Source: Escherichia coli (GTDB taxonomy: Bacteria; Pseudomonadota; Gammaproteobacteria; Enterobacterales; Enterobacteriaceae). Taken from it: a stretch of 64,000 nucleotides of DNA. Of the stretch, positions 52,228 to 55,200 are shown one piece after another. The notes under the pieces were generated by a model. That model was not told where the DNA came from. It did not search any database and saw only the letters and a program-made list of their open reading frames with translations. Within the stretch, counting starts at the first letter, position 1; each line of letters starts with the position of its first letter. Both the position numbers and the translations under genes were made by a program. The stretch lies in the NCBI RefSeq assembly GCF_003334335.1, contig NZ_QOWQ01000011.1. One strand, given 5' to 3'.

Positions 52228-55200
52228 TTGAGCCAGGAATACACTGAAGACAAAGAAGTCACATTGACAAAGTTAAGTAGCGGCCGCCGCCTTCTGGAGG
52301 CGTTGCTGATCCTTATTGTCCTGTTTGCCGTCTGGTTGATGGCTGCCTTACTAAGCTTTAACCCTTCGGACCCCAGCTGGTCGCAAACGGCCTGGCATGA
52401 ACCTATCCATAATTTAGGTGGGATGCCCGGTGCGTGGTTGGCAGATACGCTGTTCTTTATTTTTGGCGTGATGGCTTACACCATTCCCGTCATTATTGTC
52501 GGCGGTTGTTGGTTTGCCTGGCGTCATCAGTCCAGCGACGAATACATTGATTATTTTGCCGTTTCGCTACGCATCATTGGCGTTTTGGCGCTCATCCTTA
52601 CCTCCTGTGGTCTGGCGGCAATCAACGCTGACGATATCTGGTATTTTGCCTCCGGTGGCGTCATTGGCAGCTTACTAAGCACTACGCTACAACCACTGCT
52701 ACACAGTAGCGGGGGAACTATTGCGCTGCTCTGCGTTTGGGCAGCGGGCCTGACGTTGTTCACCGGTTGGTCATGGGTGACCATTGCTGAAAAACTCGGC
52801 GGCTGGATTTTAAACATTCTCACCTTCGCCAGTAATCGTACCCGTCGCGATGATACCTGGGTCGATGAAGATGAGTATGAAGACGACGAAGAGTATGAAG
52901 ATGAAAATCACGGCAAACAGCATGAATCACGCCGTGCCCGTATTCTTCGCGGCGCGCTAGCGCGTCGTAAACGGTTGGCGGAAAAATTCATTAATCCGAT
53001 GGGGCGGCAAACAGACGCTGCGTTGTTCTCCGGTAAGCGGATGGATGATGACGAAGAGATTACCTACACTGCACGCGGTGTGGCTGCCGACCCGGACGAC
53101 GTCCTATTTTCGGGCAATCGTGCAACGCAGCCAGAATATGACGAATACGATCCATTATTAAACGGTGCGCCAATTACCGAACCTGTCGCTGTAGCAGCTG
53201 CTGCTACCACGGCGACACAAAGCTGGGCTGCGCCGGTTGAACCTGTGACTCAGACGCCGCCTGTTGCCTCTGTTGATGTTCCACCTGCGCAACCTACAGT
53301 AGCCTGGCAGCCTGTACCGGGTCCACAAACGGGAGAGCCGGTTATTGCTCCTGCACCGGAAGGTTACCCACAGCAGTCACAATATGCGCAGCCTGCAGTG
53401 CAATATAATGAGCCGCTGCAACAACCAGTACAGCCGCAGCAGCCGTATTATGCACCTGCAGCTGAACAACCTGCGCAACAGCCGTATTATGCCCCTGCGC
53501 CAGAACAACCGGTGGCAGGTAACGCCTGGCAAGCCGAAGAGCAGCAATCCACTTTTGCTCCACAGTCTACATACCAGACTGAGCAAACTTATCAGCAGCC
53601 AGCCGCTCAGGAGCCGTTGTACCAACAGCCGCAACCCGTTGAACAGCAGCCTGTTGTGGAGCCTGAACCCGTTGTAGAAGAGACAAAACCCGCGCGTCCG
53701 CCGCTTTACTACTTTGAAGAAGTTGAAGAGAAGCGAGCCCGTGAACGTGAACAACTTGCGGCCTGGTATCAACCGATTCCAGAACCGGTTAAAGAACCAG
53801 AACCGATCAAATCTTCGCTGAAAGCACCTTCTGTTGCAGCAGTACCTCCAGTAGAAGCCGCTGCCGCTGTTTCCCCGCTGGCATCTGGCGTGAAAAAAGC
53901 GACACTGGCGACGGGGGCTGCCGCAACCGTTGCCGCGCCAGTCTTCAGTCTGGCAAATAGCGGTGGACCGCGTCCTCAGGTCAAAGAGGGGATTGGTCCG
54001 CAGTTGCCACGACCGAAACGTATCCGCGTGCCAACTCGTCGTGAACTGGCGTCTTACGGTATTAAGCTGCCCTCACAGCGTGCGGCGGAAGAAAAAGCCC
54101 GTGAAGCCCAGCGCAATCAGTACGATTCTGGCGATCAGTACAACGATGATGAAATCGATGCGATGCAGCAGGATGAACTGGCACGTCAGTTCGCCCAGAC
54201 ACAGCAGCAACGCTATGGCGAACAGTATCAACATGATGTGCCCGTAAACGCAGAAGATGCAGATGCTGCGGCAGAGGCTGAACTGGCTCGTCAGTTTGCG
54301 CAAACTCAACAACAACGTTATTCCGGCGAACAACCGGCTGGGGCGAATCCGTTCTCGCTGGATGATTTTGAATTTTCGCCAATGAAAGCGTTGCTGGATG
54401 ATGGTCCACACGAACCGTTGTTTACGCCAATTGTTGAACCTGTACAGCAGCCGCAACAACCGGTTGCACCGCAGCAGCAATATCAGCAGCCGCAACAACC
54501 AGTTCCGCCGCAGCCGCAGTATCAGCAGCCACAACAGCCGGTTGCGCCGCAGCCACAATATCAGCAGCCGCAACAACCGGTTGCGCCACAGCAGCAATAT
54601 CAGCAGCCGCAACAACCGGTTGCGCCGCAGCAGCAGTATCAGCAGCCACAACAGCCAGTTGCGCCACAACCGCAGGATACCCTGCTTCATCCGCTGTTGA
54701 TGCGTAATGGCGACAGCCGTCCGTTGCATAAACCGACGACGCCGCTGCCTTCTCTGGATTTGCTGACACCGCCGCCGAGCGAAGTGGAGCCGGTAGATAC
54801 CTTTGCGCTTGAACAAATGGCTCGCCTGGTGGAAGCGCGTCTGGCTGATTTCCGTATTAAAGCCGATGTCGTCAATTACTCTCCGGGGCCGGTTATCACT
54901 CGCTTTGAATTGAACCTGGCACCGGGCGTAAAAGCGGCGCGCATTTCTAACTTGTCACGGGACCTTGCCCGTTCACTTTCGACGGTGGCGGTGCGTGTCG
55001 TTGAAGTTATTCCTGGCAAACCCTATGTAGGTCTGGAGTTACCGAATAAAAAACGACAAACCGTTTATCTGCGCGAAGTTTTGGATAACGCCAAATTCCG
55101 CGATAATCCGTCGCCATTAACCGTGGTGCTGGGTAAAGATATCGCCGGTGAGCCGGTGGTTGCCGATCTGGCGAAAATGCCGCACTTGTTGGTTGCGGGG

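Follow-up and report, generated by a model that had tools for sequence, protein, structure and literature searches.

This analysis concerns a 39-bp tandem repeat inside ftsK, at positions 54445-54678 of a 64,000-nucleotide stretch of Escherichia coli contig NZ_QOWQ01000011.1 (the window, to which all coordinates refer). The array is very probably a largely neutral, in-frame coding minisatellite in a disordered, length-tolerant tether placed before the DNA-translocase motor of FtsK. It is CVN001, a coding variable-number tandem repeat (VNTR) already exploited for typing by multiple-locus VNTR analysis (MLVA), and its variability was already known. As a routine strain-typing marker chosen for that variability, the locus matters little beyond this use; what is added here includes an explicit assignment of CVN001 to FtsK residues 740-817, immediately before the motor. 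The features on which the argument depends are the following.

52228-56217, + strand: ftsK coding sequence, 1329 amino acids (aa), TTG start according to the list of open reading frames (ORFs); assigned from that list, NF007615 and gene context.
54445-54678, + strand: 39-bp in-frame array, six units, FtsK aa 740-817, consensus ending in (Q/P)QY, CVN001 allele 5; defined by Tandem Repeats Finder, unit table, shuffle control, primers and size formula.
54679-56217, + strand: FtsK C-terminal translocase, aa 818-1329 (alpha, beta and gamma subdomains), directly after the array; from the PDB 2IUS alignment and Pfam.
54332-54350, + strand: CVN001 forward primer AACCGGCTGGGGCGAATCC, exact single match; sequence from PMC8143711 Table 1.
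54757-54776, - strand: CVN001 reverse primer GGCGGCGGTGTCAGCAAATC, exact single match; sequence from PMC8143711.

An earlier note on this DNA, made from its letters and ORF list, had described about six copies of a 39-bp unit in the ftsK linker. Its coordinates hold: read in frame, 54445-54678 is exactly six 39-bp units of 13 aa each. Tandem Repeats Finder delimits 54445-54665 (period 39, 5.7 copies, 88% matches, no indels) and returns an additional 117-bp period over the array (94%). Pairwise identity between units is 77-95%, and 13 of the 18 codon differences from the unit consensus are synonymous. Identity at lag 39 is 0.87; the maximum over any lag in 2000 codon shuffles is 0.675. A composition rich in glutamine (Q) and proline (P) would by itself fall far short of such a repeat.

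The gene is ftsK, as the earlier note had it, and the array lies in the linker of its product. The NCBIfam FtsK equivalog model NF007615 matches residues 1-1329 with 3049 bits (cutoff, 1566), the order lrp-ftsK-lolA-rarA is found both in the ORFs of the window and in the RefSeq annotation of matching genomes, and over the ftsK region tested the identity to E. coli genomes of K-12 type is 100%. The chain sequence of the E. coli FtsK motor structure (PDB 2IUS) aligns to aa 818-1329 (1131.7 bits); since the construct begins at aa 818, the array (aa 740-817) stops one residue short of the solved domain. A Pfam scan of residues 500-1329 places FtsK_alpha (PF17854) at aa 840-940, the FtsK_SpoIIIE ATPase (PF01580) at aa 948-1161 and FtsK_gamma (PF09397) at aa 1264-1324, and leaves the array uncovered by any domain. 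Q makes up 50% of the array and P 28%. In an AlphaFold2 model built from an alignment of 42 orthologous sequences, aa 690-829 are coil with a predicted local distance difference test score (pLDDT) of 50-59; the alpha domain exceeds 90. Low complexity, lack of a domain, low pLDDT and a place outside the crystallised construct all agree with the predicted status of the array as part of an intrinsically disordered linker.

The linker (FtsKL in the cell-division literature) is reviewed as an unstructured, P/Q-rich segment whose length differs between species (PMC5357621, PMC5391129), and as a tether of ~650 aa that joins the membrane domain to the motor (PMC5357621, PMC5391129, PMC2800217). The array forms its C-terminal 78 residues. 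The literature found differs from the present analysis in that it handles the linker whole or in large blocks. A search on linker disorder and length effects returned nothing relevant to E. coli, and no study of natural E. coli copy-number variants of this array was found in the literature searched.

The identity with CVN001 follows from the primers. Each matches the window once, and the two face each other and flank the array. The amplicon, 54332-54776, is 445 bp. In the generic E. coli MLVA scheme, CVN001 has a 39-bp unit and the allele is (product-250)/39 (PMC8143711); (445-250)/39 = 5.0 gives allele 5. Papers that cite and tabulate the scheme (PMC8143711, PMC5217547, PMC3877011) credit it to Lindstedt et al. 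2007. Array and marker are one locus: they share primers, unit length and size formula, and their allele ranges and frequencies agree. The gene behind CVN001 is not named in the E. coli MLVA literature found; its link to ftsK comes from the primer mapping done here.

Copy number varies between strains. A 501-bp query across the array matched all 5,426 complete E. coli genomes; it aligned end to end in 2,352 of them, and in the remainder the alignment breaks at the array. From the 5427 records matching a 1.2-kb query, 60 were taken at even steps down the ranking. Their spans deviate by -156, -12, -9, +15, +39 and +78 bp, and many of the alignments are interrupted at the array start. Alleles were counted in the 60 genomes by combining query spans with fetched loci, five of the 60 being assigned by analogy with identical-looking rows; samples of this kind are systematic by alignment score, not random, and RefSeq complete genomes are a biased collection. 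The counts are as follows.

CVN001 allele 1: 1/60 genomes.
CVN001 allele 2: 1/60 genomes.
CVN001 allele 5: 21/60 genomes (~35%).
CVN001 allele 6: 28/60 genomes (~47%).
CVN001 allele 7: 4/60 genomes (~7%).
CVN001 allele 8: 2/60 genomes (~3%).
CVN001 non-integer allele: 3/60 genomes.

These frequencies are close to those published from capillary MLVA; in Swedish isolates producing extended-spectrum beta-lactamase, allele 4 makes up 1%, allele 5 40%, allele 6 40%, allele 7 13% and allele 8 5% (PMC5217547 Table 3). Within the ST131 lineage CVN001 was reported as monomorphic (PMC5217547).

The array was also read directly in 21 sequences (the window plus 20 fetched E. coli loci) by in-silico PCR and translation. 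It holds 2 to 9 units, with 15-bp partial units (QQPQY) in some variants. FtsK ranges from 1290 to 1381 aa, and every length variant is a multiple of 3 bp and in frame. The in-silico alleles are 1, 2, 4, 5, 6, 7 and 8, plus variants of +15 bp and -9 bp; 17 of the 20 other loci carry integer alleles, and the other three contain 15-bp partial units. The linker length that had been expected to vary between strains thus does so, and comparison of ftsK across E. coli genomes, as the earlier note had advised, does not return an invariant copy number.

The 15-bp partial units inside the array occur in L014, L015 and L020 (L followed by a number: a fetched locus), and UTI89 is among the lineages that carry them. 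Such units give non-integer MLVA sizes (+15 or -9 bp); an assay based on fragment length would score these as the closest whole allele.

Rearrangement footprints were found by labelling each distinct 39-bp unit and comparing unit order strain by strain. The arrays of L002 and L009 equal that of L005, L006 and L018 plus a tandemly duplicated two-unit block (78 bp); over 2580 bp of ftsK flank, L002 and L009 stand at 0-2 single-nucleotide differences from L005 and L006 and at 8 from L018. The array of L019 is that of L018 minus 78 bp, and its junction is a hybrid unit made of the 5' part of unit 8 and the 3' part of unit 14, as an exchange inside a shared sequence leaves it. The array of L012 consists of K-12 units 0, 4 and 5, i.e. 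the K-12 array minus units 1-3; this 117-bp deletion matches the higher-order 117-bp period. Multi-unit changes in near-identical backgrounds are what is expected from replication slippage or from unequal homologous exchange between non-adjacent units. The pace of change is comparable to the time of one or two point substitutions per 2.6 kb of flank. The array thus appears to be a minisatellite of moderate speed rather than a hypermutable switch. Of the proneness to slippage and recombination that had been proposed for the linker repeats as a group, the part on this array stands (one 78-bp duplication, deletions of 78 and 117 bp); it fails for a twin motif further upstream, whose peptide is invariant (see below).

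A second polymorphic 39-bp array sits 1 kb upstream of CVN001 in ftsK, where a duplication of QPYYAPA had been reported at about 53440-53510.

53435-53510, + strand: in-frame array QQPYYAPA[A/P]EQP[A/V], 2 copies in the window; from Tandem Repeats Finder (period 39, 1.9 copies, 86%) and repeat family D5.

The duplication is real and is copy-number polymorphic. A span census of 60 genomes, in which the single-copy case and one odd span were checked by direct reading, counts one genome with 1 copy, 18 genomes with 2, 23 with 3 and 18 with 4; the peptides of the 21 sequences have 2-4 copies. With 1-4 copies overall, and 2, 3 and 4 copies at roughly 30%, 38% and 30%, this array is about as diverse as CVN001.

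Comparable loci are known in Salmonella enterica. A 39-bp repeat of ftsK is the MLVA locus STTR7/SENTR2, with 9.3 copies in S. Enteritidis NCTC 13349 (PMC2430564), and a natural ftsK repeat indel at residues 757-784 is described in S. Enteritidis (PMC6137255). Like CVN001, this is an in-frame ftsK-linker repeat used for MLVA, and the indel lies next to the motor, as here; it differs in species and in its higher copy number. It was compared with the present array by literature description. The 45-bp tolA repeat SENTR1, an example of in-frame minisatellites in proteins of the envelope or of division, has a unit that is again a multiple of three and is polymorphic enough for typing (PMC2430564). 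It is an in-frame minisatellite in a different gene and with a different repeat, and serves as an analogy only.

The linker-motor junction was then compared across genera in 80 loci among the matches listed, a broad and incomplete sample to which Salmonella does not belong. Citrobacter has a related 39-bp unit (13-aa unit PVAPQQHYQQPAQ). Arrays of other periods are found in Superficieibacter (45 bp x 6.8), Leclercia (36 bp x 5.6), Enterobacter sp. Bisph1 (42 bp x 7.4) and Photorhabdus cinerea, which has a perfect (QQP) x 11.7 with a 9-bp unit. The junction arrays (L022, L024, L025, L026, L100) lie within the 100-360 nt upstream of the motor match. No junction array was found among the matches listed from Yersinia, Rahnella, many other Enterobacterales and all Vibrio and Shewanella loci. 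Within E. coli the spacer from a conserved EPLF(T) motif to the motor measures 33-124 aa; across Enterobacterales genera, again among the matches listed, its range is 38-119 aa. Among these loci, the EPLFT-to-motor segment is a recurrent site of independent Q/P-rich expansion, with units of 9, 36, 42 or 45 bp. The segment just upstream of the array, 54361-54435 (FtsK ~aa 712-736), is conserved across Enterobacterales genera; the sequence that follows it is hypervariable.

The explanation preferred here is as follows. The array constitutes the last 78 residues of the P/Q-rich linker, which is predicted to be disordered, and abuts the motor. Whole or multi-unit gains and losses would occur through replication slippage or unequal recombination between the 77-95% identical units. 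The unit length is a multiple of three, so all variants stay in frame. The sole effect would be to lengthen or shorten the flexible tether that joins the divisome domain, anchored in the membrane, to the hexameric motor. This tether would tolerate a wide range of lengths, and copy number would drift between lineages and remain stable within clones; drift of the first kind with stability of the second is what makes the locus serve as MLVA marker CVN001. The variation would accordingly be nearly neutral, and the segment would act as a spacer only.

Several points weigh against near-neutrality. No assayed isogenic E. coli copy-number series was found in the literature searched. The 47 distinct DNA units encode only 16 peptides (rough nonsynonymous-to-synonymous ratio, 0.27), and most unit replacements are P/Q swaps; from this constraint on the peptide, composition at least is under selection. 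That several genera built Q/P-rich arrays at this junction, each on its own, might mean that such a spacer is selected for and not just tolerated. Larger linker deletions are reported to lead to filamentation and reduced dimer resolution (Bigot 2004, Dubarry 2010, as summarised in PMC5357621), so the linker as a whole is not dispensable.

The same facts bear on adaptive length tuning, in which the number of 13-residue units would set the reach of the motor from the septum and hence the timing or efficiency of dimer resolution, or the stability of the divisome, each lineage having its selected length. Peptide conservation relative to synonymous change and the arrays of differing period (Citrobacter, Superficieibacter, Leclercia, an Enterobacter species, Photorhabdus) are in its favour, as is the need for the whole linker in normal division and full dimer resolution, according to the summary in PMC5357621. 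It is nevertheless unlikely. Spacer length differs by up to nearly four-fold (33-124 aa) between E. coli isolates that seem healthy, the array has no counterpart at the junction in many Enterobacterales among the matches listed, and no compensation between the copy numbers of the two arrays is seen by eye in the 21 sequences. In the one allele swap found, in which the S. Enteritidis indel was exchanged between two strains, egg-white survival, the only phenotype assayed, was unchanged (PMC6137255). That the variation in both 13-residue arrays, which yields the 33-124 aa spacer, is a selected tuning knob rather than drift is improbable. If it were one, it would set how far or how soon the motor takes hold of trapped DNA, and thereby how septum closure is coupled to chromosome-dimer resolution, and the 9-, 36-, 39-, 42- and 45-bp Q/P-rich arrays at one junction in different genera would be a case of convergent evolution. 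The natural alleles, with their four-fold range of spacer length, are a ready-made series for tether-length tests of FtsK.

Short reads can mis-assemble tandem arrays, and the copy-number differences might then be artefacts of repeat collapse or expansion. This is very improbable. The arrays are only 78-351 bp long, their units are told apart by synonymous differences, and identical multi-unit structures recur in unrelated assemblies (L005/L006/L018; L002/L009). PCR-fragment sizing of independent isolates gives the same allele range and similar frequencies (PMC5217547). The closeness of the PCR-sized frequencies to the in-silico sample rules the artefact out.

Phase variation usually acts on tandem repeats within coding genes, and a contingency locus in which repeat changes turn expression of ftsK, or of a gene overlapping it, on and off was considered. 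It was rejected as next to impossible: 39 bp is 3 x 13, every allele, including those of +15 and -9 bp, is in frame and leaves FtsK intact with no frame shift, the N-terminal domain and linker of E. coli FtsK are implicated in cell division (PMC5391129), CVN001 is probably not hypermutable, being monomorphic within ST131 (PMC5217547), and the overlapping ORFs are compositional artefacts.

These ORFs are listed below.

54073-54816, - strand: antisense ORF of 247 aa, not a gene; from the ORF list.
54422-54769, - strand: antisense ORF of 115 aa; from the ORF list.
+ strand: ORF of 100 aa in another frame; from the ORF list.

Long spurious ORFs on the complementary strand had been noted and do exist (247 and 115 aa). 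Five of the six reading frames are free of stops across the array, which explains the long off-frame ORFs. Their status as real genes was rejected on three grounds. Codon composition is that of the CAG/CAA/CCG-rich sense strand, and ORF length follows array length. In UTI89 one frame, that of the 247-aa antisense ORF, ends early, and in L011 a different frame does. The RefSeq annotation at these positions consists of ftsK alone. For genome annotation, the array accounts for long spurious ORFs and is one spot of genuine ftsK length differences between strains.

The plasmid collection PLSDB contains 11 'plasmid' records with ftsK or the array. Four are of 4.8-4.9 Mb, chromosome-sized; the smaller ones that carry the array (73 kb-1.3 Mb) are likely to be parts of chromosomes that were deposited as plasmids. 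None of the 11 matching records places the array on a mobilizable plasmid.

Small in-frame linker indels also occur outside the arrays (L013, L015/L102). Strain 204 lacks 4 aa between two ELARQ motifs, strain ERP001 lacks 6 aa before FtsK residue 366, and strain A13 (L102) has a span difference of -9 bp that may be another such indel. Length variation thus extends beyond the two arrays.

The twin motif of 14 residues, reported twice at about 54170-54330, lies between the two arrays.

54175-54216, + strand: twin motif copy 1, aa 650-663; repeat family D4.
54280-54321, + strand: twin motif copy 2, aa 685-698; repeat family D4.

Both copies are present, their DNA at 54170-54216 and 54275-54321 being 81% identical and spaced by 105 bp. 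The peptide is identical in 21/21 E. coli sequences, and a recognisable pair is found in Citrobacter, Leclercia, Yersinia, Pectobacterium and other Enterobacterales genera. By its conservation, the twin motif appears to be an old, selected motif pair and not a slippage-prone repeat; it resembles two short linear motifs kept by selection amid an otherwise variable linker.

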